From Myxococcota bacterium (lineage in GTDB: Bacteria; Myxococcota_A; UBA9160; UBA4427), in assembly GCA_965250285.1 (NCBI GenBank), contig OZ252299.1, forward strand, positions 992,001-1,056,000: a DNA stretch of 64,000 nucleotides, given 5' to 3'. Of this stretch, positions 24,085 to 41,616 are shown in pieces. How positions within the stretch are numbered: position 1 is the stretch's first letter; the number at the start of each line of letters is the position of its first letter. Made by a program: the position numbers and the translations under genes. The notes below the pieces were generated by a model that worked only from the letters and a program-made list of their open reading frames with translations, was not told where the DNA came from and ran no database searches.

Positions 24085-24113
24085 TTGACGCCCGACCGGT
24101 CGGTCGGTAAATT
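24085..24113 (+). promoter_or_regulatory. Sigma-70 promoter of tetR with overlapping palindromic operator
   Basis: TTGACG (24085-24090), 17-bp spacer, TAAATT (24108-24113); spacer holds the 7-2-7 inverted repeat CCGACCG-GT-CGGTCGG (24092-24107). Confidence 0.75.
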
Positions 24114-24249
24114 TCATCGGGTTCCGGCCGCCCACTTCACGCCGCGAACACCGCGCGATCGACCGTCGTCCGAAAGTCAGGTCTCAGCGCCCAGCCGATG
24201 GGCTCGGCCACCGGGACGTCCCGACGAGACGGACACGGAGGAAGGCGAC

Positions 24250-24945
24250 ATGACCCCCGGCACCATGCCCCGCGCATCTCTGCGAGCGCCCTCCCGCGCA
24301 GGCGAGGCCTCGCGCGACAAGATCCTCGAGGTCTGCGAAGCGCTGTTTGCGCGCAGCGGCTTCGCGGGGGTCGGCATGCGCGAGGTCGCGCGCGAAACGG
24401 GGCTCAGCAAGAGCGCGCTCTTCCATCACTTCACGACCAAGCTTGAGCTCTATTCCGAAGTGCTCGAGCGCGTGCTGATCCGACTCGGCGAGCGTGCCGC
24501 GCCGGCGCTTCGCGAAGACGTCGACCCCGCCGAAGCGCTCGATCAGATCGTCGACGTGCTCATCGACTTCCTCGCTGAGGACCCTGCCACGCCGCGGCTC
24601 GCGATGCGGGCGCTCTTCGAAGACGACCCGTACGGGCCCGACCTCTCCGAACGCGACCCCGAGCCCTTCGAGGTCGCGTTGCTCGCGTTGATCGGCGGCT
24701 TCGAGGCGCTGATTCAGCGCGGGATCGCCCAGGGCCGGTTCCGACGCGTCTCGGTGCCCGACACGATCCAGAGCCTGATCGGAATGACCGTCTACCACTT
24801 CGCCTCGGGCGAGTTCGGCGAGGCGTTGCTCGGCGAATCGCTTTTCTCGACCAGCGCCGTGCGCCGTCGCAAACGAGAGGTCAAGGGCTTCGTGCGCCGT
24901 GCCGTTTTGAAGGGCGTCGACGCCGACGAACCGCCAGCTCCCTGA
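24250..24945 (+). CDS. TetR/AcrR family transcriptional regulator
   Basis: HTH: ILEVCEALFARSGFAGVGMREVARETGLSKSALFHHFTTKLELY; GGAGG SD before ATG 24250. Confidence 0.93.
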   Translation: MTPGTMPRASLRAPSRAGEASRDKILEVCEALFARSGFAGVGMREVARETGLSKSALFHHFTTKLELYSEVLERVLIRLGERAAPALREDVDPAEALDQIVDVLIDFLAEDPATPRLAMRALFEDDPYGPDLSERDPEPFEVALLALIGGFEALIQRGIAQGRFRRVSVPDTIQSLIGMTVYHFASGEFGEALLGESLFSTSAVRRRKREVKGFVRRAVLKGVDADEPPAP

Positions 24946-24976
24946 GCCGGCCCAGCCACGGCACGCCGCCAGGGGC

Positions 24977-26110
24977 GTGTCGAAGCGTGGGGATCTTCCC
25001 GACGCGCAGCCAGAGAAGGAGACCTGCACCGTGGACAAGATCCTTTCCGACCACCGCCGCATGCTCGGCGACTTCGAAATCGTCGACTGGGTGGACGAGG
25101 CCGACGTCGCGCACGCGCGCGCGCGCATCGACATCGACGTCCCCGTCGAGACGCACTGGACCTGGGAATACGGGAGCGAGGTCGAAGAGCTCCGCCGGCT
25201 CTACGAGAAGGGCAAGGCCGGGCAGTGGAACGCGCAGACCGACGTCGACTGGTCGACGCCGGTGACGAGCGATGACTGGCTGCTCACCCCAGAGGCGTCG
25301 ATGCTGGCGCAGGTGTGCAAGCTCGCTGGCAAGGACGAGGCCACCCAGAAGGCTGCGATGTTCGACGAGACCGCCTATCTGCTCTCGCAGTTGCTCCACG
25401 GCGAGCAGGCCGCGCTGCAGCTCTGTGGCCAGCTCACGAACGTCTGCGACAAGATGGATCAGAAGTTCTATGCGGCGAGCCAGACCATCGACGAGGCGCG
25501 GCACGTCGAGGTCTTCGCGAAGTTCCTATCCGAGAAGATGGGGCGCCTGTACCCGCTGAATCCCACCGTGAAGGTGCTGCTCGACATCCTGCTCGCGGCC
25601 GAGGGCGTCGAGAAGAAGACGCTCGGCATGCAAACCCTCTTCGAGGGCATGGCGGTGGGCATCATGGGCCTGATGCAGCAGGAATCGAAGAACCCGCTCC
25701 TCGAGGACATGCTGCAGCGGGTCGCCGGCGACGAGTCGCGGCACGCAGCGTTCGGTGTCCTCAGCATGCGGCGCGTGATGGCCCAGGCCGATCAGGGCAC
25801 CAAGGACGAGCTCGAAGACTGGGCGTTCGACATCCTCGAGACGCTGAACGCCGGGCAGCAGCTCGACATGCTGCGGATGCTCGGCCCGAAGTACGACATC
25901 GACCCCGAGATCATCACGCAGATGACACTCGCGATGCCGAACTTCGCCGAGCTGAACAGCATGATCTACATGCACACGGTGGTGCCGAACCTGAAGAATC
26001 TGGGCCTCATCACCGACCGCACCGAGTCGAAGTGGCGCGGCGTCGGCATGATGATCGACTCTCGCGGTGAGGAGCTTCGCTTCTCGGATTTCTCGCTCGT
26101 CGCCGACTGA
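24977..26110 (+). CDS. Ferritin-like diiron oxygenase (AurF-like family)
   Basis: Diiron ligand pattern HGEQAAL, DEARH, FEGMA, DESRH; N-terminal LYEKGK..QWNA..D.DW. Confidence 0.82.
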   Translation: MSKRGDLPDAQPEKETCTVDKILSDHRRMLGDFEIVDWVDEADVAHARARIDIDVPVETHWTWEYGSEVEELRRLYEKGKAGQWNAQTDVDWSTPVTSDDWLLTPEASMLAQVCKLAGKDEATQKAAMFDETAYLLSQLLHGEQAALQLCGQLTNVCDKMDQKFYAASQTIDEARHVEVFAKFLSEKMGRLYPLNPTVKVLLDILLAAEGVEKKTLGMQTLFEGMAVGIMGLMQQESKNPLLEDMLQRVAGDESRHAAFGVLSMRRVMAQADQGTKDELEDWAFDILETLNAGQQLDMLRMLGPKYDIDPEIITQMTLAMPNFAELNSMIYMHTVVPNLKNLGLITDRTESKWRGVGMMIDSRGEELRFSDFSLVAD

Positions 26111-26136
26111 ACCACGCAGTCGAAGCGCGCGACCCT

Positions 26137-26175
26137 CGGCCCCGCACACCCAGGTGTGCGGGGCCGTTTGCGTTT
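26137..26175 (+). terminator. Rho-independent terminator after the diiron gene
   Basis: Perfect 13-bp stem cggccccgcacac-ccag-gtgtgcggggccg followed by tttgcgttt. Confidence 0.75.
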
Positions 26176-26260
26176 CGACCGGGGGCGCTTCGGCGGTTGC
26201 TCGCGCCCCGTCGCTCCTCGATCCTCTGGCGACGCCCGCCATCGGGCGAGGAGGAAGCCA

Positions 26261-27088
26261 ATGGCGGGCTTGCAGCTCACCGGGCTCGAAGGCAAGGTCG
26301 CCGTGGTCACGGGCGCGGGTCGCATGCGCAGCATCGGTCGACCGATCGCCGTCGAGCTGGCCCGGGCCGGGTGCGATGTCGTGGTGACCGGCACCGGGCG
26401 AGCGCCCGACCAGTACCCCGAAGACGAGCGCGCCGCCGGCTGGCGGGACATCGACAGCGTCGCGGGCGAGGTGCGCGCCCTCGGTCGACGCGCGACCCCG
26501 ATCGTGAGTGACGTGGCCGACCCCGAAGCGGTCGACGCGCTCGTGGCGGCGGTGGTGGCCGAATACGGGCGGGTCGACATCGTGGTCAACAACGCTGGCG
26601 CGGCGCGAGGCGAAGACCGCCAGCCGGTCGTCGACGTCGCGCCCGAGGTCTGGCGGCGGGTGATCGACGTCAACCTGAACGGCAGCTTCTTGATGAGCCG
26701 CGCGTTCGCGCGGCGCATGATCGACCAGGGTGAGGGCGGCTCGATCGTCAACATCTCGTCGATCGGCGGCAAGATGATGCCGCCGGGCAACGCGGCCTAT
26801 GCCGCGAGCAAGGCCGGCATCCACGCGCTCACGGCCGCCATGTCGGGTGAGCTGGGTGCGCACCAGATTCGCGTGAACTCGATCTGCCCCGGCATCATCG
26901 ATACGGCGCGGCTCGACGACATGCGCGGCGAGACGTGGGATCAGGTGATCGGTCAGTACGTGCCCCTCGGGCGAGCCGGCCGCGGCGATGAGGTCGCCTG
27001 GCTGGCCGTGTACCTCTGCAGCGATCAGGGCGCGTGGATCAGTGGCCAGCTCTACAGCATCGACGGCGGGCAGCTGGCAGGGCGCTAG
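26261..27088 (+). CDS. Short-chain dehydrogenase/reductase (FabG-like)
   Basis: VAVVTGAGRMRSIG, VNNAG, NISS, YAASK, NSICPG; AGGAGG SD. Confidence 0.92.
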   Translation: MAGLQLTGLEGKVAVVTGAGRMRSIGRPIAVELARAGCDVVVTGTGRAPDQYPEDERAAGWRDIDSVAGEVRALGRRATPIVSDVADPEAVDALVAAVVAEYGRVDIVVNNAGAARGEDRQPVVDVAPEVWRRVIDVNLNGSFLMSRAFARRMIDQGEGGSIVNISSIGGKMMPPGNAAYAASKAGIHALTAAMSGELGAHQIRVNSICPGIIDTARLDDMRGETWDQVIGQYVPLGRAGRGDEVAWLAVYLCSDQGAWISGQLYSIDGGQLAGR

Positions 27089-27802: not shown

Positions 27803-28777
27803 TCAGTGTGCGTAGCGGGCGAGGGTGCTCTTGAGCTCGGCTTCGATCTCGGCGCGCAACGACGGGGGCTCGAGCACCTCGGCCGCGGCGCCGAACGTGA
27901 GGATCCACCTGCGCAGCTCGGTGCCGGTGCCGACCTCGAGCTCGAGCTCGACGCCGCCGTCGTCGAGCGGCTCGATCCGCTGGGTCGGATGCCACTCGCG
28001 CTCGCGAATCTCGTGGGCATGGCTCGCCGCGAAGCGAATGCAGACCCGCTCGGCGGGCTCGGCGACCACGCCGAAGCTCGATGCGGTGTACGCATCGAAG
28101 TCGAAGTCGTCGGGCACCTCGAACGCATCGCTCGTCGGCGTCGCATCGAGGATGCGGTCGACGGCGAACGTGCGGATCTCGTTCGACAGGTCGTCGTGGC
28201 CGATCACGTAGAGACCGCCCCCGTGATACCAGACGTGATACGGCGCCAGCGAGCGCGACTTCGTCTCGCCGGTGCGCCCAGTGCGGTAGGCGATCGTCAC
28301 GCGATGCCGCTGCAGAACGGCCTGGTTGAGCGTCGAGATCGCGTCGCGCTGGTCGGCGTAGCGCTTGTGGGGCCCGGGCAGCACGCGGAAGGCACCCGCC
28401 AGCTCGCCGAGAAAATCGGTCAGCTCGGGCCCCAGGCCCGCTCGAATCTTGCCGAGGGCCGAGCGGATCGAGTCGTGGAAGACCGTGCCCTCGAGCGTGC
28501 GCAGCAGATCCTCGCCGAAGGCGAGCGCGAGGATCTCGTCGGGCGTGAAGGGCACGTCGCCGAGCTTGAAGCCGTCGAGGAACCGGTAGTAGGCCTTGCC
28601 GTCGCGCTTCTCGCTCGTGACCGGGAACCCCGCGTACATCAGTGCGTCGAGATCGCGGTAGATGGTGCGTCGAACGCAGCCCAGGTCGTCGGCGAGCTCA
28701 TCGAGCCCGACGCCCGCCCGGCTCTTCGCGAGTCGCTGAATGAGCTGCCACTGGCGCGCGAGCTGATCACCCCTCAT
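27803..28777 (-). CDS. HTH-WYL-WCX transcriptional regulator (YafY/PafBC-like)
   Basis: wHTH ELADDLGCVRRTIYRDLDAL..AGFP; WYL region LAPYHVWYHGGGLYVIG..RTFAVDRI; WCX WHPTQ..WILTFG..AEVLEPPSLR. Confidence 0.92.
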   Translation of the reverse strand: MRGDQLARQWQLIQRLAKSRAGVGLDELADDLGCVRRTIYRDLDALMYAGFPVTSEKRDGKAYYRFLDGFKLGDVPFTPDEILALAFGEDLLRTLEGTVFHDSIRSALGKIRAGLGPELTDFLGELAGAFRVLPGPHKRYADQRDAISTLNQAVLQRHRVTIAYRTGRTGETKSRSLAPYHVWYHGGGLYVIGHDDLSNEIRTFAVDRILDATPTSDAFEVPDDFDFDAYTASSFGVVAEPAERVCIRFAASHAHEIREREWHPTQRIEPLDDGGVELELEVGTGTELRRWILTFGAAAEVLEPPSLRAEIEAELKSTLARYAH

Positions 28778-28865
28778 ACGAGCAGGGTACCGATCCGCGG
28801 GAAGGCTCGCGACGGCTGGGTGCGCGCGGCGCCGGTCGGCCGGGGCGAAACGTCGAGTGCGACGC

Positions 28866-30131
28866 TCAGGGCGCGTCCGGCTCGGTGAAGAAGGCGGCGA
28901 GCTGGTCGCGCTTGTCTTCGGCGTCGCGGTAGCCGAGCTCGACCAGCGGTGTGGTGTAGGCCGTGTCGAACAGCAGGTACGACAGCAGGTCGGCTTCCTT
29001 GATCTCGTCGCCCGCATCGCTCGCCCGCATGAACATGCGCAGGAACGCGTTGAGCTCGAGCTCGTCGGATCGTTCGTGCATGAGCTTGCCGGCCAGGTAG
29101 CCGAGGTCGACCGAGGGCCGGATCACGAGGTCGCTAATGCGCTGAAGCGAGCGGCCGCTTCGCTCGAGGCCGACGGTGTTCATGCGCTCGAGGAAGTCGT
29201 CGCCGTACGCCTCTTCTCCATCTGAAATGATGTTGTTGATGAAGTGCATGCGCGCGAGGTCGGCGTCGACCGGCGAGAGCATCAGAGCGTTCAGCACCTT
29301 GCCGAACAGGAACATCGGGTTGCCGAAACCGGCGGTGCGCTGCTGCGCGATCGTCTCGCTCACGTTGCGCTGAATGCCGTGCGAGAGGCTGATCACCAGC
29401 ACCCGATTCGCGCCGAGGCGCACCGCGGGGGCGAGCGGCGTGTTCAGCCGCAGTCCGCCATCGGCGTAGTAGCGAGCGCCGACGCGAACGGCCGGGAAGA
29501 GCATCGGGATCGCAGCAGAGGCCAGCGCGTGGACGGGCGAGAGCCGGATCGTCTGCATGCGGATGTTGTCTTGACTCGCCCAGGGCGGCAGGGTGCGGCC
29601 CTTTTGCTGGCAAAAGACGACGGCGCGCCCAGTCGCGAGCTGAGTGGCGGCGATGCACACGCTCTCGACGCGCCCGTGGTCGAGGTTGTGCGAGATCTTC
29701 GACCACGGGATCGAGCGCAGGACGAGGTCTTCGAGCGGGCCCGTGTCGAGCAGCCCGAAGAGGCGGTCGGGGCGCTGCCCCTCGCGCAGCATGTTTGCGA
29801 CGCGCCGGACGCCGAGCAGCTTGCGCGGAATGCCGAGCAGGTCGCCCGCGCCGAATCGGAAGACCTCGTCGACCTGGAGCTCTTCCCAGATCTTCACGAG
29901 GCGTTCGCCGCGCCCCTCCGACTCGTCGGCCGTCGCCGCGATGAACGCCGCGTGGATCGCGCCCACCGAGGTGCCGCACACGATTTCGAAGTGCGGCTGC
30001 ACGCCCATGTGGTCGGGCAACTCGTCGAGGATGTACTTGAGCGCACCCGCCTCGTAGGCGCCGCGCGCGCCCCCGCCCGAGAGCACGATGGCTCTCTTCG
30101 GAGGCAGGTGACCGGGGACGGATCGGGTCAA
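28866..30131 (-). CDS. Patatin-like phospholipase/esterase
   Basis: LSGGGARGAY, nucleophile GTSVG, ASAAIP..FP, DGG. Confidence 0.92.
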   Translation of the reverse strand: MTRSVPGHLPPKRAIVLSGGGARGAYEAGALKYILDELPDHMGVQPHFEIVCGTSVGAIHAAFIAATADESEGRGERLVKIWEELQVDEVFRFGAGDLLGIPRKLLGVRRVANMLREGQRPDRLFGLLDTGPLEDLVLRSIPWSKISHNLDHGRVESVCIAATQLATGRAVVFCQQKGRTLPPWASQDNIRMQTIRLSPVHALASAAIPMLFPAVRVGARYYADGGLRLNTPLAPAVRLGANRVLVISLSHGIQRNVSETIAQQRTAGFGNPMFLFGKVLNALMLSPVDADLARMHFINNIISDGEEAYGDDFLERMNTVGLERSGRSLQRISDLVIRPSVDLGYLAGKLMHERSDELELNAFLRMFMRASDAGDEIKEADLLSYLLFDTAYTTPLVELGYRDAEDKRDQLAAFFTEPDAP

Positions 30132-30153
30132 GGTTGGGTCGGATTCGTCGAGG

Positions 30154-30720
30154 CTACTTGCTCACCCGCTCCGAGTACTCTCCGGTGCGCGTGTCGATTC
30201 GGAGCACGTCGCCCTCCTCGATGAAGAGCGGCACGTTCAGCGTGAAGCCCGTCTCGACCGTGGCCGGCTTCAGCGCCCCCGAGCTCGTGTCTCCCTTCAC
30301 GCCAGGGTCCGACTTGGTGACCGTCGCTTCGATGTAGTTCGGCAGCTCGATGTTCACGGGCTTGCCCTTCCAGAAGAGCACCTCGACGTTCATGTTCTCC
30401 ATCAGGAAGTTCGTAGCATCGCCGAGCACGTCGCCGCCGATCGGAATCTGATCGTAGGTGTCCGCGTCCATGAAGATCAGGTCACTCCCGTCATGGTAGA
30501 GGTACTGCATCTTGCGCTCTTCGACGTCGGCCTCGGGCGCCTTCTCGCCGCTGCGGAAGGTGCGCTCGAGCACGCGACCGTTCAGCAGGTTCTTGACCTT
30601 GGTGCGCACGAACGCGCCGCCCTTGCCGGGCTTCACGTGCTGGAAGTACACGATCGTGAAGGGCTGGCCGTCGAGCTCGATCTTCAGGCCGTTCTTGAAC
30701 TGGGACGTATCTACCGCCAT
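30154..30720 (-). CDS. efp: Elongation factor P (Lys-type loop PGKG)
   Basis: HVKPGKGGAFVRTK, PGVKGDT, KPATVETG, VPLFI..G..IDTRTGEY..R. Confidence 0.98.
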   Translation of the reverse strand: MAVDTSQFKNGLKIELDGQPFTIVYFQHVKPGKGGAFVRTKVKNLLNGRVLERTFRSGEKAPEADVEERKMQYLYHDGSDLIFMDADTYDQIPIGGDVLGDATNFLMENMNVEVLFWKGKPVNIELPNYIEATVTKSDPGVKGDTSSGALKPATVETGFTLNVPLFIEEGDVLRIDTRTGEYSERVSK

Positions 30721-30844: not shown

Positions 30845-31846
30845 TCAGATCGGACGCGCTTCGAGCGCCGGGCCCGTGGCGTCCGGTCCAGCGAGCTCGA
30901 TCCGCCAGGCCGGCTCGAAGCCGAGCTCGGTGCGGGCGCGCGTCGTGTCGAGGCTCACGCCGTAGCGCTGGTGGGGCGACTCGACGAGATCCGCCAGCGC
31001 ACGGGCACCCAATCGACCGAGGCCCTGGCCGAGCAGCGAGAGCAGCGGCGCGGGGACCGGCAACGTCTGCGTGCCGCGCGCGCGGTCGAGCATCGACAAC
31101 GGCACACACTGATCACTGGCGACGTTGAAGACCCCCCGCGCCCCGAGATGCAGGGCGTGCATTGCCGCCTGGACGACGTCGTGGTCGACGACGAGTGGGC
31201 ACATCGGGTCGAAGCCGGCGGTACGCATCGACAGCGGTCCCGCATCGAAGGGGGCCAACAGCACTTCGCCCTCGCTCGTGAGCACCGTGGCGAGGCGGAG
31301 CAGCGCCACGCAGAGCGTCGGGTGATGCACTTCGGCGTGGATCATCATGTCGCAGTCGACCCAGCAGCGAAGATGCGCGGGCCAGTCGGGGCTGAGCGCC
31401 AGCGGTGCGTGCTCGTCGAGTCGATGGGCATTGCCGGCGGGCAGCGCATAGGCCGCCATGCTGCCCAGAGCGACGAGCTGTCGTACGGCGGCGTGCTCGA
31501 GGCTCTGCTCGAGCACGAGCCGGGTCTCGACCGTGCGGGGAGGGACGTCTGCCAGCCAGGGGCGGCCGCGGTCATCGCGATTCGAGAGGCGGGGCAGCAG
31601 CAGCACCGCGTCGGGCTCGGTCTTCGCGAAGAGCTCGGCGACGTCGCGTGGCTTCGAGAGGTCGGCCTCGTGGTGGCAGAACCGATCGGGCGCGTGGGCG
31701 AAGCGGTGCTCGAAGGGGGGCTCCGCACCAGGCGGGCCCACCGTATCGAGGCGTTCGACCGACGGGTCCTCCATGAGCCGAAGCGCGAGACTGCGTCCGA
31801 GCGGCTCGTCCGCATGGGTGACGAGGACCCGACGCCGCGCGCTCAC
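30845..31846 (-). CDS. Atypical NAD-dependent epimerase/SDR-fold protein with degenerate Rossmann motif
   Basis: VLVTHADEPLG in place of TGxxGxxG; GFDPMCPLV..HDVVQA, GVFNVA, LDTTRARTELGFEP; paralogous to 39737-40666. Confidence 0.75.
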   Translation of the reverse strand: MSARRRVLVTHADEPLGRSLALRLMEDPSVERLDTVGPPGAEPPFEHRFAHAPDRFCHHEADLSKPRDVAELFAKTEPDAVLLLPRLSNRDDRGRPWLADVPPRTVETRLVLEQSLEHAAVRQLVALGSMAAYALPAGNAHRLDEHAPLALSPDWPAHLRCWVDCDMMIHAEVHHPTLCVALLRLATVLTSEGEVLLAPFDAGPLSMRTAGFDPMCPLVVDHDVVQAAMHALHLGARGVFNVASDQCVPLSMLDRARGTQTLPVPAPLLSLLGQGLGRLGARALADLVESPHQRYGVSLDTTRARTELGFEPAWRIELAGPDATGPALEARPI

Positions 31847-33003
31847 GGTGCGGCGGCCCGAGGTGGGGTGCGGGTGTGTGTGTCCGGTGGCGTGCCGGTC
31901 GTCGCGTGGGCGTTGATCAGCCCCTGCACCCGACGCCGAACGCGATCGGCGAGTCGCTTCACGTCGCCCGCATCATCGCACGTGCCTTCGGGCTCGACGG
32001 GCTCGCCGTACACGATGCGGTAGCGCACGGGGTAGGGCAGCAGACCGAGCGGCCCGAGCCACGGGAACGTCGGGGTGATCGGAAAGCCCGGCAGCCCGAG
32101 CAGACGCCCGAGCGGCTTGAGGTTGGCGAGGATCGGCGACTGATCGTCGCTGCCGATCACGGCCATCGGCACGATCGGGGCGCCCGCCCGCAGCGCTTCC
32201 CGGGCGAAGCCCGAGTGGAACGTCTGCAGCCGGTAGCGCTGCGTGATCGGCTTCATCACACCTGCGCTGCCTTCGGGAAAGACGAGCACCGGCTGGCTGT
32301 CGGCGAGCAGGTCCCGCACGGCGGAGCGGGTGCCGATCACCTGGCCCATGCGAGCCATGAAGACGTTGATCCAGGGCATCGAGCCCACGAATCGGTCGAC
32401 GACCGCACGCGCGAGCCGAGGCGGATCGAGGCGCATCAGCAGATCGGTGACGATCATCGCGCCGTCGAAGGGCAGCAGCCCGGCGTGATTGCTGACGAGC
32501 ACGACGGCGCCGTCGCGCGGCACGTGCGCGTGTCCGGTGCTCTCGACCCGGAACCAGTTCTGGTAGAGCGCCTCACAGATCGGGGCCGCGCGCCGCACGG
32601 CATCGAGCGAGAGCCCGTGTTGATCGAAGCCCGTCGCAGGGTCGGCGAGCGCCGCGATGGCGCGCAGCCGCCTTCGCACGTCGTCGCTCGTCCAGCGATC
32701 GAATGCGTCCTCGGGTTCGGGGATCGGAATCTCGGCCAGGGGCGCAATGGGCCGCACGCGGCGCGGACGCGCGGCGCGGTTGCGGAGTGTCTGGCCGCGG
32801 CCGGACTCGGCGGCTTCGGGGATCTCGGCGCTCGCGTCGCCGGGCCAGCCGAGCTCGGTCTCGGCGCGGCGACGCGCCTCGATGGCCGAGAGGGCGGTGA
32901 GGAAGGGGTCTTCGGTGGTCGACCCGTCGGTCTCGAACGGATTCGAGCCGAGCGCGGGGCCGCTGCGGTCTTCGGGGGCGTGGGGGTCTGTTTCGGCGCT
33001 CAT
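31843..33003 (-). CDS. Lysophospholipid/glycerolipid acyltransferase (PlsC/DAGAT-like) with disordered N-terminal extension
   Basis: SNHAGLLPFDG (HxxxxxD), VFPEG, RYRLQ.F..GF, PIVPMAVIG, ITPTFPWLGPLGLLPYPVRY.I.YGEP. Confidence 0.9.
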   Translation of the reverse strand: MSAETDPHAPEDRSGPALGSNPFETDGSTTEDPFLTALSAIEARRRAETELGWPGDASAEIPEAAESGRGQTLRNRAARPRRVRPIAPLAEIPIPEPEDAFDRWTSDDVRRRLRAIAALADPATGFDQHGLSLDAVRRAAPICEALYQNWFRVESTGHAHVPRDGAVVLVSNHAGLLPFDGAMIVTDLLMRLDPPRLARAVVDRFVGSMPWINVFMARMGQVIGTRSAVRDLLADSQPVLVFPEGSAGVMKPITQRYRLQTFHSGFAREALRAGAPIVPMAVIGSDDQSPILANLKPLGRLLGLPGFPITPTFPWLGPLGLLPYPVRYRIVYGEPVEPEGTCDDAGDVKRLADRVRRRVQGLINAHATTGTPPDTHTRTPPRAAAP

Positions 33004-33040
33004 CGATCGCTGCTCCTCCCGATCGGGTGGCCGATCGGGT

Positions 33041-33943
33041 TCAGCGCCGCTCTTCGCGATTCGGCCCGACTCGGCCCATCGCGAAGCGTGGCGCGGTTTC
33101 GGTGACTGGCGCACGCGCCAGTAACTCGTCGGCGATCTGCTCCATCACGCGTGCTCCCTTGTCGCGCGGTGCGTACTCGAAGATCGATCGTCCGCGCGAC
33201 TGTGCTTCATCGATCTTCACGTGGTATCCCACCACGCTCTTGGACAGCTCACCCGGGAATCGGTTCCGCAGCGCATCGAGAACTTCACCGGCGAGGCGCG
33301 TGCGCCTGTAGAAGGTCGGGACGACCGAGGTGATGCGCAGGCGTTCATGGCGATACCGGCTGCGCACGAGGTCGATCGTGTCGAGCAGCGCGGCGCACCC
33401 ATCGAGTGCGAGGTATGTGAGCGGGACGGGTACGACGAGCTCGTCACATGCGCAGAGCACATTGAGCGTCAGCGCGCCGAAGCTCGGCGGTGCGTCCATC
33501 AGTACGAGGTCGTAGTCGACGAGGCGCGGGGCCGCATCGAGCGCGCGCCGCAGTCGGTGCACGGTCTCTTCGTCGGTGCCGCCCGCCTGTGCGGGGTCGG
33601 TCTCGCTCCAGGCAGGGAAGAGGGCGAGCGCCTTGTTCGAGACGACGACGTCGAGGTTCGGCACGCGGGTGTGGACGATCGGAAGCTTCGTCTCGACGCG
33701 CGGCGCTCGGGGGCGTGCATCGGGGCCGTGCAGGACCGAGTCGACGAGCAGCTCGATCGCGCTGTGGCGAGCGCGCCTCGGATCGACACCGAGCACCTTG
33801 CCGAGCTGGCCCTGGGGATCCATGTCGACCGCGAGCACGCGCAGGTCGTGATGATGAGCGAGGTGAAAGGCGGCGTTCGCAGCAAGCGTCGTCTTGCCGC
33901 TGCCGCCTTTCTCATTGATGAACGCGATGCGGCGAGGCCCCAT
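33041..33943 (-). CDS. Orphan ParA/Soj-family ATPase
   Basis: Deviant Walker A INEKGGSGKTT, VDMDPQG, DAPPSFG.LT.N.L, EAQSRGRSIFEY; no parB adjacent. Confidence 0.9.
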   Translation of the reverse strand: MGPRRIAFINEKGGSGKTTLAANAAFHLAHHHDLRVLAVDMDPQGQLGKVLGVDPRRARHSAIELLVDSVLHGPDARPRAPRVETKLPIVHTRVPNLDVVVSNKALALFPAWSETDPAQAGGTDEETVHRLRRALDAAPRLVDYDLVLMDAPPSFGALTLNVLCACDELVVPVPLTYLALDGCAALLDTIDLVRSRYRHERLRITSVVPTFYRRTRLAGEVLDALRNRFPGELSKSVVGYHVKIDEAQSRGRSIFEYAPRDKGARVMEQIADELLARAPVTETAPRFAMGRVGPNREERR

Positions 33944-34116: not shown

Positions 34117-34156
34117 AAAAGGAAGAGGCCCGCAGCGATCGCTCGCTGCGGGCCTC
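34117..34156 (-). terminator. Rho-independent terminator after etfA
   Basis: Perfect 14-bp stem gaggcccgcagcga-tcgc-tcgctgcgggcctc followed on the minus strand by ttcctttt. Confidence 0.8.
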
Positions 34157-35948: not shown

Positions 35949-36006
35949 GGGGGGCCAACCTCCGAACCAATGAAGGGAGCCGCCAGACGGCCCCCGATGT
36001 GAGTGA

Positions 36007-36024
36007 CTTGAAAGCGATTTCAAG
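36007..36024. promoter_or_regulatory. Palindromic candidate operator upstream of etfB
   Basis: AT-rich 7-4-7 inverted repeat CTTGAAA-gcga-TTTCAAG about 58 bp before the etfB start. Confidence 0.5.
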
Positions 36025-36302
36025 GGGCTGCGGTGCCCCGCCGCCAGACGCGCTGGGGCCCGCAAGTGCGCGCGGACGCTATCGGATAGGCCCCCGGCTT
36101 TCAATGATGGGCTCTCCCGCGGGCGGGCTGTCCAGGGCAACCCATCGCTGCGCCTCCTTCGGGCGGGGGCGCGCGGCTCTGCGGCGCCTGGCGGCCACGG
36201 CAGCTGCCGTCCTTCTCGAGAACGTCGATCCGGGCGCGGCGGTTGGCTCGGGTGGGCAGGGGCGCCTGCCCGGGGTGCTCGGACCGGGGGCGGGCGGTCG
36301 GG

Positions 36303-36432
36303 TCGGATCTTCTGGGGCGTCGTCCTCAGTCTGCGGGCGTGGGTCGTGCGGGGGCGGAGCGCTTGCGCGGCGCCGGGGAGCGGCGATTGGGATCGCGCCC
36401 TTCGATTGCGGGCGCCGCCCCAGAAGATCCGA
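36303..36432 (-). repeat. Structured intergenic element, copy B (inverted)
   Basis: Perfect 17-bp terminal IR tcggatcttctggggcg/cgccccagaagatccga enclosing the reverse-complement cores TCGTCCTCAG (36320-36329) and TTGCGGGCGC (36406-36415). Confidence 0.85.
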
Positions 36433-36512
36433 GCGGCGAGCCCGAGGCCCAGGCCCGTTTGCGAGGCCGTTGCGTGCTGCACCGCGATTCGGTGCAGCGC
36501 CGAGGCTGCGTT

Positions 36513-36643
36513 CGCGGTTTCGTGGGGCGGCGCCCGCAATCGAAGGGCGGCGTGCGCGGGTACGGTGCCCCGGAACGGACGCAACCGTCCGGGTCCGTAC
36601 AACCCGCGCCCGCAGACTGAGGACGACGCCCCACGAAACCGCG
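36513..36643 (+). repeat. Structured intergenic element, copy C
   Basis: Perfect 17-bp terminal IR cgcggtttcgtggggcg/cgccccacgaaaccgcg enclosing GCGCCCGCAA (36530-36539) and CTGAGGACGA (36617-36626). Confidence 0.85.
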
Positions 36644-36865
36644 CCCGAGCAACCCAGGTCGTCGAGGCACCCGGGTCGCCGACGCAATGGGATGGAGGGA
36701 TCGAGCCATCCAATCGGGCGCAGAGCCGGTCATCGGACGCACGTGCTTTTGGAAACGAGAGGGACGCGAGCGCGTGTAGACTCTCGAAGCGGTGTCGCCA
36801 GGGGATCGTCGGGGGGCGGTCGCGCGGGCCGCGGTCATCAGGGGGCATGAGGGAAGGGGAGCGAG

Positions 36866-39736: not shown

Positions 39737-40666
39737 ATGGACCGGATCCTCATCACCGGCATATCGGGTGGACTTGGCCGCCTCGTCGCGCGCCGTCTGC
39801 TGCCCGAGGCCGAGATCACCGGCGTCGATCGCCACGCCTGGCGCAGCAAACCGCCCGAGATTCGCCTGCACCGTGTCGACCTGCTCAAGCGGGCCTTCGA
39901 GGACGTGATCCGCACCGAGAAGCCGAAGGTCGTCGTCCACATGGGCTTCGTCCGCGACTTTCGCTCGGCCCAGGAGCTGCGCCACGAGGTGAACGTGCGC
40001 GGCACGAAGCAGCTGCTCGACCACTGCGCCGCCCATGGCGTGCAGCAGCTGATCGTGCTGTCGAGCGGCTACGTGTACGGCGCGTTCAGCGAGAACCCGT
40101 ACTTCATGGACGAGGATCAGCCGCTCTCGGCGAGCCGTAGCTATCCCGAGATTCGCGATCTCGTCGAGGTCGACACGATCGCCTCGGCCTTCATCTGGCG
40201 GCATCCCCAGGTGCGCACCAGCGTGCTGCGACCGGTCAATACGCTGGGGCCGCACGTGCACTCGATGGCGGCGGCGCTGCTCAGCATGCGGCGGGTACCG
40301 ACGGTGACGGGCTTCGACCCGATGATGCAGTTCATCTCGGAGGACGACGTCGTCGAGGCGATCGCGGCCGCCATCGCGCACAGGCTGCAGGGTGTGTTCA
40401 ACGTCGTGGGGCCGGGCGAGGTACCGCTCCACACCGCGATCCGCGAGTGTGGCCGTAGGCCCTTCTCGTTGCCGGGGCCGGTCGCCCACTCGGCCTACGA
40501 GCGCGGTTTCAAGTGGGGTCTCTGGCCGTATCCGCCGGGCATGCTCGACTATCTCAAGTTTCCGATTTCGCTCTCGGGCGAACGCTTCCGCGAGGCAACC
40601 GAGTTCAAGCCGAGCGTGTCGCTCCGCGAGATCTTCGCCTCGATGAGGGCCCGCCGTGCACGTTGA
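39737..40666 (+). CDS. NAD-dependent epimerase/dehydratase family (atypical SDR)
   Basis: ILITGISGGLG, VNVRGT, LSS..VYGA...NP, VLRPVNTLGP, GFDPMMQFISEDDV, GVFNV. Confidence 0.88.
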   Translation: MDRILITGISGGLGRLVARRLLPEAEITGVDRHAWRSKPPEIRLHRVDLLKRAFEDVIRTEKPKVVVHMGFVRDFRSAQELRHEVNVRGTKQLLDHCAAHGVQQLIVLSSGYVYGAFSENPYFMDEDQPLSASRSYPEIRDLVEVDTIASAFIWRHPQVRTSVLRPVNTLGPHVHSMAAALLSMRRVPTVTGFDPMMQFISEDDVVEAIAAAIAHRLQGVFNVVGPGEVPLHTAIRECGRRPFSLPGPVAHSAYERGFKWGLWPYPPGMLDYLKFPISLSGERFREATEFKPSVSLREIFASMRARRAR

Positions 40667-40725
40667 TTCACGCTGCATCAGACCGAAGCGCCGAAGAGCT
40701 GCGCCGTCCTTCGAAGGAGCGACCC

Positions 40726-41616
40726 GTGTCGATTGACTCGCAGCTCGCGACGTCGGCCATCGGAGATCTCGTCGGGGCCTTCAAGCCGCTCTGGGTGCGC
40801 CGACTCCAGGAGGAGATCGACGATCGTGTCGCTCACGTGCCGACGGTACTCAACGAGTACGGGTACGACAGCTACGGCATGAACCCACGGCAGACCAGCC
40901 AGAGCCTGCTCTTCGGTGCGCTGCTGTACCGCTACTACTTCCGCTGTCAGACCTACGGCATGGAGGGGCTGCCGACCGGCCCGTTCATGCTGATCTCGAA
41001 CCACGCCGGGCAGCTGCCCTTCGACGGCATGATGATCGCGACGGCGATGCTCCTCGAGGCGAACCCCCCGCGCATCGTGCGCGGCATGGCCGAGTACTTC
41101 GTGAGCGAGCTGCCGTTCGTGAGCGTCGCTGCGGCCCGGGGCGGGACGCTGTCGGGCACGCCGCGCAACTGCATCAACCTGCTGAAGGGCGGTGAGGTCG
41201 TGATGGCGTTCCCGGAAGGCGCCCGAGGCATGAACAAGCCCTTCAGCAAGCGGTACAGGCTCGAGCGGTTCGGGCTCGGCTTCATGCGGCTCGCGCTCGA
41301 GGCGGGCGTGCCGATCGTGCCGGTCTCGGTGGTCGGCAGCGAGGAGCAGAACCCGGGGCTCTTCAACCTGCGCAAGATCGGCAAGGCGATCGGCGCGCCG
41401 GCGCTCCCGATCACGCTCACCTTTCCCCTGCTCGGTCCGCTCGGCCTGCTGCCGATGCCCGTGAAGTACCACATGTACTTTCATGCACCGATGCACTTCA
41501 CCGGCGACCCCGACGACGAGGACGCGAAGGTCCAGGATCAGGTCGATCAGGTGAGGGCGGTGATCGAAGCCGGCTTCGAGCGTGGCCTCAAAGAGCGCAG
41601 CGGCATCTTCAGCTAG
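40726..41616 (+). CDS. Lysophospholipid/glycerolipid acyltransferase (PlsC/DAGAT-like)
   Basis: SNHAGQLPFDG, FPEGARG, RYRLERFGLGFMRLA, PIVPVSVVG.EEQ.P; AAGGAG SD before GTG 40726. Confidence 0.9.
   Translation: MSIDSQLATSAIGDLVGAFKPLWVRRLQEEIDDRVAHVPTVLNEYGYDSYGMNPRQTSQSLLFGALLYRYYFRCQTYGMEGLPTGPFMLISNHAGQLPFDGMMIATAMLLEANPPRIVRGMAEYFVSELPFVSVAAARGGTLSGTPRNCINLLKGGEVVMAFPEGARGMNKPFSKRYRLERFGLGFMRLALEAGVPIVPVSVVGSEEQNPGLFNLRKIGKAIGAPALPITLTFPLLGPLGLLPMPVKYHMYFHAPMHFTGDPDDEDAKVQDQVDQVRAVIEAGFERGLKERSGIFS

Follow-up and report, generated by a model that had tools for sequence, protein, structure and literature searches.

Gene content of the locus

The DNA analysed here, which we call the window, is a 64,000-nucleotide stretch from a Myxococcota bacterium (GTDB phylum Myxococcota_A; contig OZ252299.1, positions 992,001 to 1,056,000), and our subject is a minus-strand cassette within it in which an orphan parA is followed by genes for an acyltransferase and a degenerate extended short-chain dehydrogenase/reductase (SDR). 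The encoded ParA belongs to a distinct clade that keeps company with lipid-related genes in several phyla, and it may reach its cargo through a short peptide at the N-terminus of the acyltransferase. The features that matter to the argument are these, in window coordinates:

33943-33041, minus strand: orphan parA, 300 aa; Pfam AAA_31 (E 2e-32, above cut-off)
33003-31843, minus strand: acyltransferase gene, 386 aa, ATG at 33003; PF01553
31846-30845, minus strand: degenerate extended SDR gene; THADxPxG, no YxxxK
32899..32958, minus strand: candidate ParA-docking tag on the acyltransferase, residues 16-35; LGx[D/N]PF, then DPF and a short helix
32749..32784, minus strand: basic patch of the acyltransferase, residues 74-85, RNRAARPRRVRP; loosely conserved
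34125..34156, minus strand: hairpin of 14 bp with a U-rich tail, 3' of etfA; likely intrinsic terminator
30720-30154, minus strand: efp (named by eye), between the SDR gene and the patatin gene
39737..41616, plus strand: paralogous SDR and acyltransferase pair with no tag and no ParA, an internal control outside the cassette

Along the minus strand the genes run etfB, etfA, parA, acyltransferase, SDR, efp and patatin (etfBA and efp were named by eye). The initial annotation had described an orphan parA, a spacing of 37 bp between it and the acyltransferase gene, and an acyltransferase stop codon that overlaps the SDR start, and all of this is as described: no parB is adjacent to the window parA, and the overlap consists of the GTGA at 31846-31843, with the SDR gene translationally coupled to the acyltransferase gene. 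The hairpin after etfA has a z of -4.87, none of 200 shuffles being equally stable, and given this hairpin and its U-rich tail parA likely heads its own transcript, which sets the cassette apart from etfBA. The host genome is a single contig of 6.25 Mb in which a canonical parA-parB pair (4,910,012-4,911,885; parB named by eye) lies 3.9 Mb from the cassette, two more ParA genes are unrelated to that of the cassette, and the SDR and acyltransferase pairs number three in all.

A distinct clade of ParA proteins

In an alignment of 117 clade sequences K12, K17, D150 and R213 are invariant and D40 and D42 are each present in 116, and the proteins carry the hallmarks of the ParA/MinD (SIMIBI) ATPases, namely a deviant Walker A motif with its signature Lys, the motif-2 Asp pair and the Walker B Asp. 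The window ParA falls into a distinct clade with a support of 99 (FastTree, 60 rows), and the separation is also visible as a gap in scores, the best hits of the clade exceeding about 290 bits and ordinary ParA proteins reaching at most about 200 bits. Genomes without a clade ParA still hold other ParA-like genes, in the generic score range. The window protein is under the cut-off of NCBIfam NF041546, and its nearest solved structures are Soj/ParA (1wcv, 8ray). Its separate clade and the lack of an adjacent parB place it, as far as sequence can tell, outside chromosomal ParABS.

A conserved C-terminal membrane helix of the MinD/FlhG type was not found among 40 rows, in which the tail after the last helix has 4-38 residues and is unconserved. 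Basic residues are retained in the clade (R213 in 117/117, R/K214 in 82/117 and K/R243 in 103/117) at or beside what we take to be the positions of R189 and R218 of Soj. These two are the DNA-binding residues of Soj according to the accessible part of PMC3778016. The ParB-binding residues of Myxococcus xanthus ParA (PMC12462528, partial text) were mapped manually by way of the 8ray alignment, and on the resulting map of the ParB-sensing surface the hydrophobic loop after Walker B is partly retained in the 117 clade rows. The patch of Tyr and acidic residues that senses Arg is variable in the clade, whereas ParB-linked controls have the Tyr in 23/23 and the Glu in 22/23, and K49 and K104, close to the mapped ParB-binding surface, are invariant in the 117 rows. 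A surface remodelled in this way would, we infer, fit a different and more acidic partner peptide.

Could this ParA then be a nucleotide-gated regulator, one that switches or sequesters the acyltransferase through the peptide in the manner of BcsQ or FleN? The remodelling of the Arg-sensing surface would suit such a role, as would the fact that the tag is carried by an enzyme and not by a structural adaptor. However, the nearest solved relatives are Soj/ParA, the NCBIfam model for BcsQ scores far below the ParA models, and the clade has kept its basic residues where Soj binds DNA, so that we consider a purely regulatory role quite unlikely.

Another orphan ParA, of 384 aa and with a long C-terminal extension, lies at G000:C1:2729427-2732345, with a MerR-like gene (named by eye) on one side and an unknown gene of 315 aa on the other; similar long ParAs occur in L193, L218 and L242.

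Distribution and gene neighbourhoods

Clade ParA proteins were found in 28 of 40 relatives, in 23 of 151 genomes of the window's own phylum, in 181 of 301 genomes of the phylum of G042 (hereafter Myxococcota), some of them 9-13 Mb in size, and in 7/11 and 5/5 genomes of two small phyla, always as a single match per genome. The Myxococcota tally counts the unpublished genome G223 and was made with eight candidates scored per genome. Flanking genes were compared for all hits of the own order, the own phylum and the small phyla and for 59 of the 181 Myxococcota hits, a non-random set taken from the listed matches.

An acyltransferase, SDR, phasin-like, PhaR-like or Get3/BagAB-like gene neighbours parA at 135 of the 139 clade loci, as against none of 52 ordinary ParA loci, counts obtained with marker profiles built from the clade loci, with fewer than 0.9 kb of downstream sequence at 10 of the 52 controls and with loci of kin that are not independent. 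Three of the four clade loci without such a neighbour are explained by contig ends. The tie between this ParA clade and lipid genes that the initial annotation had suggested looking for in other genomes is therefore present there, and it is present in five gene orders with unrelated flanks:

Own class: parA, then acyltransferase, then degenerate SDR
Phylum of G043: (PhaR-like, then phasin-like, then) SDR, then parA, then acyltransferase, facing a Get3-like ATPase
Phylum of G044: (phasin-like, then) SDR, then parA, then acyltransferase
Other classes of the own phylum: phasin-like, then parA, with the acyltransferase next in one locus (L342)
Phylum of G042 (Myxococcota): a divergent BagAB-like pair, phasin-like, then parA, and a convergent PhaR-like gene

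The acyltransferase gene lies 3' of parA at 27 of 28 own-order loci, at all three loci of another order, where the other flanks differ, and at 7/7 and 5/5 loci of two other phyla. A phasin-like gene stands immediately 5' of parA at all nine loci that belong to other classes of the own phylum and at 44 of the 59 Myxococcota loci; of these 59, 53 have a PhaR-like gene and 52 a BagAB-like pair within 3.5 kb. Complete operons of phasin-like gene, (SDR), parA and acyltransferase are found at L151, L244 and L342, and eleven loci of the Myxococcota phylum (L122-L132) have no phasin-like neighbour.

Is it feasible that parA simply sits by chance in a housekeeping block (etfBA, efp, patatin), with no functional tie to lipids? 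Within the own order etfA (24/28 loci) and efp (21/28) are indeed almost as constant as the SDR gene. Against this stand the five gene orders with their unrelated flanks, the empty control set of 52 loci and the terminator between etfA and parA, and also the fact that in some relatives the three cassette genes are jointly missing while efp and etfA remain. Of the five parA-less own-order relatives examined, three have efp and etfA about 0.09, 0.17 and 0.76 kb apart instead of 3.5 kb; the remaining distances are 2.5 and 5.5 kb. Chance synteny is largely refuted, and we hold it to be extremely improbable.

The patatin gene that the initial annotation had placed downstream is there, but efp intervenes. 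Patatin was rejected as a member of the cassette: it occurs at 16 of 28 own-order loci and at none in the other groups, and it accompanies efp.

At 2.74 Mb in the host genome a BagAB-like pair and a PhaR-like gene face the third SDR and acyltransferase pair, and both types of neighbourhood are therefore tied together. This locus (L158, G000:C1:2740249-2745911) comprises BagA/BagB-like ATPases, a helical protein of 209 aa that belongs to no Pfam family and the PhaR-like gene, the facing pair being untagged, and it is flanked by tatA and a zinc-ribbon protein, as is the myxobacterial parA locus. Two more ATPases of the ArsA/Get3-like kind are encoded in tandem at G000:C1:4658410-4660788 and are similar to the Get3-like gene beside the operon of the G043 phylum.

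The acyltransferase and its N-terminal peptide

The acyltransferase belongs to the GPAT/PlsC superfamily (PF01553), with NHAGLLPFD and FPEG motifs and a His/Asp dyad in HX6D spacing; its closest solved folds are the membrane phospholipid acyltransferases PlsC (5kym, E 1.6e-7), GPAT and PatA, and a sequence search of the PDB with it returned no match. The initial annotation had noted that its N-terminus is much longer than that of the paralogue at 40726 and has a basic patch; the difference is about 80-90 residues, and the patch, RNRAARPRRVRP, occupies residues 74-85. Confidence of the structural model is largely low in this region (a predicted local distance difference test score of about 46-60 for residues 1-30 and again for 51-80), and we take the N-terminus to be a long, mostly disordered tether.

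Which part of this tether might ParA contact? The basic patch had been put forward for this role, probably wrongly. Its three best columns hold Arg in 12, 16 and 14 of 25 orthologues, and it directly precedes a conserved PxLxE(I/V)ELP stretch. In contrast, L18, P22 and F23 of the motif LGxDPF, which reads LGSNPF at residues 18-23 of the window enzyme and had been missed, are each present in 25/25. The pattern LGx[D/N]PF was found in all 26 own-order N-termini inspected (L024 lay outside this set), in 3/3 from another order and in six of seven acyltransferases from the phylum of G043, the seventh being interrupted by N. In the own order DPF and a short helix come after it.

In ParA partners the contact peptide lies N-terminally, where the tag sits (10.1101/2022.06.09.495121, partial text). 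At our control loci the ParB N-terminus has the form (K/R)x(G/V)LG(R/K)GL. The tag, at a comparable place near the N-terminus, has the form (K/R/S)xVLG(R/N/S/K)DPF; the two share only (V)LG(R), and the tag is therefore not a ParB motif. A search of the ESM Atlas with the N-terminal 60 residues gave no usable match. The sole candidate for a natural fusion of ParA and acyltransferase among 7,996 longer candidates, P0126, was rejected as a frameshifted read because its sequence drifts in and out of frame, and that fusions were otherwise not found in this set is weak evidence.

Does the tag follow the ParA?

In Myxococcota a tagged acyltransferase unlinked to parA was present in each of five genomes, and in the own phylum the tag likewise occurs on unlinked acyltransferases in 5/5 genomes searched; one of the tags in these two sets is the variant LGNDPL. 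Across the Myxococcota phylum a DNA pattern for the tag matched 154 of 181 ParA-positive versus 20 of 120 ParA-negative genomes, and a reversed control pattern gave three hits in all 301. Eight of the 154 hits in ParA-positive genomes were checked, and all eight are at an acyltransferase start. The 27 ParA-positive genomes without the pattern comprise 19 with a variant tag, four cut by contig ends, one with only paralogues and three with no hit. Conversely, among the 14 of 20 ParA-negative genomes that were checked the pattern was a chance occurrence in ten and real in four (G164, G185, G199 and G312), and 13 of 17 pattern hits checked in such genomes lay outside any acyltransferase. At G312:C13:359064-359853 a clade parA is split into two frames with the tagged acyltransferase retained, through either decay or an assembly error.

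The 30 best loci found in 46 ParA-negative genomes include 14 orthologous acyltransferases, none of which is tagged, although five of the 14 still have a long N-terminus; similarly, the nine acyltransferase loci found in 12 ParA-negative genomes of the own order are all untagged. The ParA-negative loci L317-L319, L321 and L326 have acyltransferases with an Ala/Lys/Pro-rich N-terminus of 250-300 residues and no tag at its start.

Paralogues, the history of the tag and the SDR

The window acyltransferase falls together with the untagged paralogue at 40726 (100/98), apart from the tagged enzymes of other lineages, and the true host orthologue of those enzymes is the untagged copy at 2.74 Mb. An approximately unbiased test rejects a union of both tagged groups (p 0.005; 36 rows, LG+G4), the group having been named after a quick tree was viewed and the outgroup not lying cleanly on one side of a branch. 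By this account, the tag either moved with parA to another paralogue or was ancestral and lost twice, as it would appear from the sequences, and under either history the acyltransferase copy beside parA retained the tag. In the tag-less orthologue group, L283-L285, L287 and L158 have an altered catalytic His (NRSG, NCSG, NRAG) and long branches, so that some of these enzymes may be inactive.

The degenerate SDR gave no hit in a Pfam scan; with the intact-looking SDR at 39737 it shares 29% identity (E 3e-17). Of the two motif losses claimed for it initially, that of the glycine-rich loop stands, THADxPxG replacing TGxxGxxG and being fixed in own-order SDR orthologues. YxxxK is missing too, but it is also missing in the paralogous SDRs, and therefore only the THADxPxG replacement is special to the cassette. 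This replacement suggests that the cassette SDR is likely a non-catalytic subunit.

Might the true partner of ParA instead be the phasin-like protein or the SDR, with LGxDPF binding something else and the window lineage using a substitute? Outside the own class no direct neighbour is as constant as the phasin-like gene, and the G044 phylum, which has no peptide, and three genomes with the peptide and no ParA would be accommodated. Yet the own class lost the phasin-like gene and nonetheless has the peptide, on another paralogue beside parA, and the eleven loci L122-L132 do without a phasin-like neighbour as well; a partner other than the tagged enzyme is, in our judgement, very unlikely. As the own lineage has no phasin-like gene, the tag is left as the likeliest link.

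What might the cargo be?

Of 11 adjacent small proteins scanned, 10 matched the phasin family PF05597, all of them below its gathering score of 28.8 (14-26 bits; E 1e-5 to 0.05), and the G043 phasin-like copy alone passes it (39.4 bits); the Atlas cluster of the phasin-like proteins is 12% PF05597. The PhaR-like neighbours match PF07879. Together, the phasin-like and PhaR-like genes of other lineages seem to point independently, if indirectly, to storage inclusions.

Polyhydroxyalkanoate (PHA) was rejected as the cargo in the host genome, which has no PhaC_N or class III PhaC match; it has four matches to wax ester synthase/diacylglycerol acyltransferase (WS/DGAT). In five clade genomes tested, WS/DGAT was found in four and a class III PhaC-like protein in one. 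A weak match to the Pfam family DAGAT (25 bits, cut-off 22) was seen in a relative only. Going by the neighbours alone, the inclusion would most likely hold triacylglycerol or wax ester rather than PHA. There is precedent for a PlsC-fold enzyme that makes triacylglycerol, DIESL (PMC10482677, partial text), and the enzymes of developmental triacylglycerol synthesis in M. xanthus are reported as unknown, triacylglycerol not having been abolished by deletion of its single DGAT (PMC4048283, partial text).

A different possibility is that ParA places a membrane lipid-remodelling complex, made of the acyltransferase, the SDR and the BagAB/Get3-like ATPases, at the cell poles or where the cell divides, much as ParC and PpfA place receptor arrays, in which case there would be no granule and the "phasin" would be a coiled-coil adaptor. 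The closest folds are, after all, membrane phospholipid acyltransferases (PlsC, GPAT, PatA), the phasin scores are mostly sub-threshold and overlap those of generic coiled-coil families, and a BagAB-like pair is near most Myxococcota loci (52/59, within 3.5 kb). Against such a complex count PF05597, which is the best or a recurring match of 10 of the 11 small proteins next to parA and which the G043 copy matches above the cut-off, and the PhaR-like DNA-binding domain by parA at 53 of 59 loci; we regard it as rather unlikely.

Proposed mechanism

The reading we prefer, and to which we give even chances, is that ParA grips the acyltransferase peptide and would thereby space neutral-lipid inclusions along the nucleoid, or else the enzyme complex from which they are seeded. 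By analogy with ParABS and McdAB, ParA-ATP dimers would coat the nucleoid, and a dimer would grip LGx[D/N]PF on the flexible N-terminus of the acyltransferase, which together with its likely non-catalytic SDR partner is predicted to reside on neutral-lipid inclusions or the seeding complex. Several tags per lipid body or enzyme cluster would bind ParA, leading to ATP hydrolysis and release, and adjacent lipid bodies would be driven apart by a diffusion ratchet, as in McdAB. Taken singly, the binding of ParA to LGx[D/N]PF is probable, and if it does occur the cargo is probably, at about the same level of assurance or a shade below, a storage inclusion.

A number of observations count against this proposal. 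In the phylum of G044 the SDR, parA and acyltransferase genes occur without the peptide at 5/5 loci, and G164, G185 and G199 hold a tagged enzyme without a clade ParA. The tag does not have the LGRGLxxL(I) spacing of ParB, and the key Arg is present in only 14 of 25 own-type rows. The co-loss of tag and ParA amounts to about four lineage events, with two independent pairs on strong branches and at most six, numbers at which significance is unreachable, and a pattern filter had removed 18 of the 64 rows meant for the tree used, among them all five untagged ones of the G044 phylum. As regards the cargo, a homologue of the phasin-like partner is not detectable in the host genome, the phasin matches were sub-threshold in all 11 adjacent proteins of one scan, the PhaR-like and BagAB-like neighbours are below the NCBIfam cut-offs, the nearest solved folds of the acyltransferase are phospholipid enzymes, and in relatives that lack the cassette 3-7 WS/DGAT matches persist.

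A bolder version is possible but doubtful: the clade would be a system of ATP-driven lipid-body positioning in myxobacteria and allied phyla, its adaptor would be a DGAT-independent triacylglycerol synthase with a portable tag that hops between paralogues, and this enzyme would also be the missing one of myxobacterial developmental triacylglycerol synthesis. More generally, we take the clade to be a real and widespread variant of ParA cargo positioning, undescribed in the literature searched, with a well-defined putative partner and cargo.

Other features of the window

A minus-strand run at 27803-30720, made up of efp, the patatin gene and one for a WYL/PafB-like regulator (named by eye), is conserved in the order, at least its efp part with or without the cassette. 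Three consecutive genes at 24085-27088, named by eye, encode a regulator like TetR, a ferritin-like protein and an SDR of the classical type, and upstream of etfB, at 35999-36850, short peptide words recur in several frames, which suggests dispersed palindromic repeats.

Comparison with known systems

ParC and PpfA are orphan ParAs that position chemoreceptor arrays, the partner being a working component of the cargo. The partner of ParC is named in the accessible part of 10.1101/2022.06.09.495121, and no chemotaxis genes are present in the neighbourhoods examined here. McdA/McdB (PMC13052382, partial text) resembles our system in that an orphan ParA-type ATPase is encoded with cargo genes, the N-terminus of the partner is disordered and the nucleoid is the likely matrix. 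However, the window ParA is only a distant match to McdA (E 1e-4 over 60 residues), no McdB or carboxysome genes were seen among the neighbourhoods examined, in our system an enzyme, a phasin-like protein or both would serve as partner, with a lipid inclusion as cargo, and the tag is LGxDPF, not a basic stretch. Soj-ParB provides the nearest structures and an N-terminal LG-type peptide; here there is no ParB/parS partner, and the tag is without GLxxL(I). PomXYZ of M. xanthus is alike as an extra ParA-like ATPase in myxobacteria, going by the part of its literature available, and no PomX/PomY-like neighbours were noticed by eye, no search having been aimed at them. DIESL/TMEM68 and the mycobacterial Rv0502-type enzymes (PMC10482677 and PMC10593935, partial texts) have a PlsC fold and a His/Asp dyad, H130/D136 in DIESL as against HX6D in the window acyltransferase. 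The window enzyme may resemble them.

In proposed job the nearest parallels are PhaM, PhaF and PhaH, tethers that keep PHA granules apart on the nucleoid, with a PF05597-like protein as a further likeness (PMC13052382, partial text). Our literature searches, outside which most subscription papers fell and which often reached partial texts, turned up no account that connects a ParA with lipid bodies, phasins or this acyltransferase family, and the accessible parts of a preprint on ParA in immunity (10.64898/2026.10.19.760177) and of an ArsA survey (PMC2963123) do not mention the context of the cassette. According to the available text of a 2025 review, the known tethers of polyhydroxybutyrate granules are all ParA-independent and not homologous to ParA, and ATP-driven placement of storage granules is still an open question (PMC13052382). 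The clade described here is a concrete candidate for such placement, its six-residue tag offers a mutable handle on the candidate ParA contact, and the tagged acyltransferase is a candidate for the developmental triacylglycerol enzyme of M. xanthus, if that species carries it. Should the proposal hold true, an enzyme that acts as its own ParA adaptor would represent a new layout for the ParA ATPase family.

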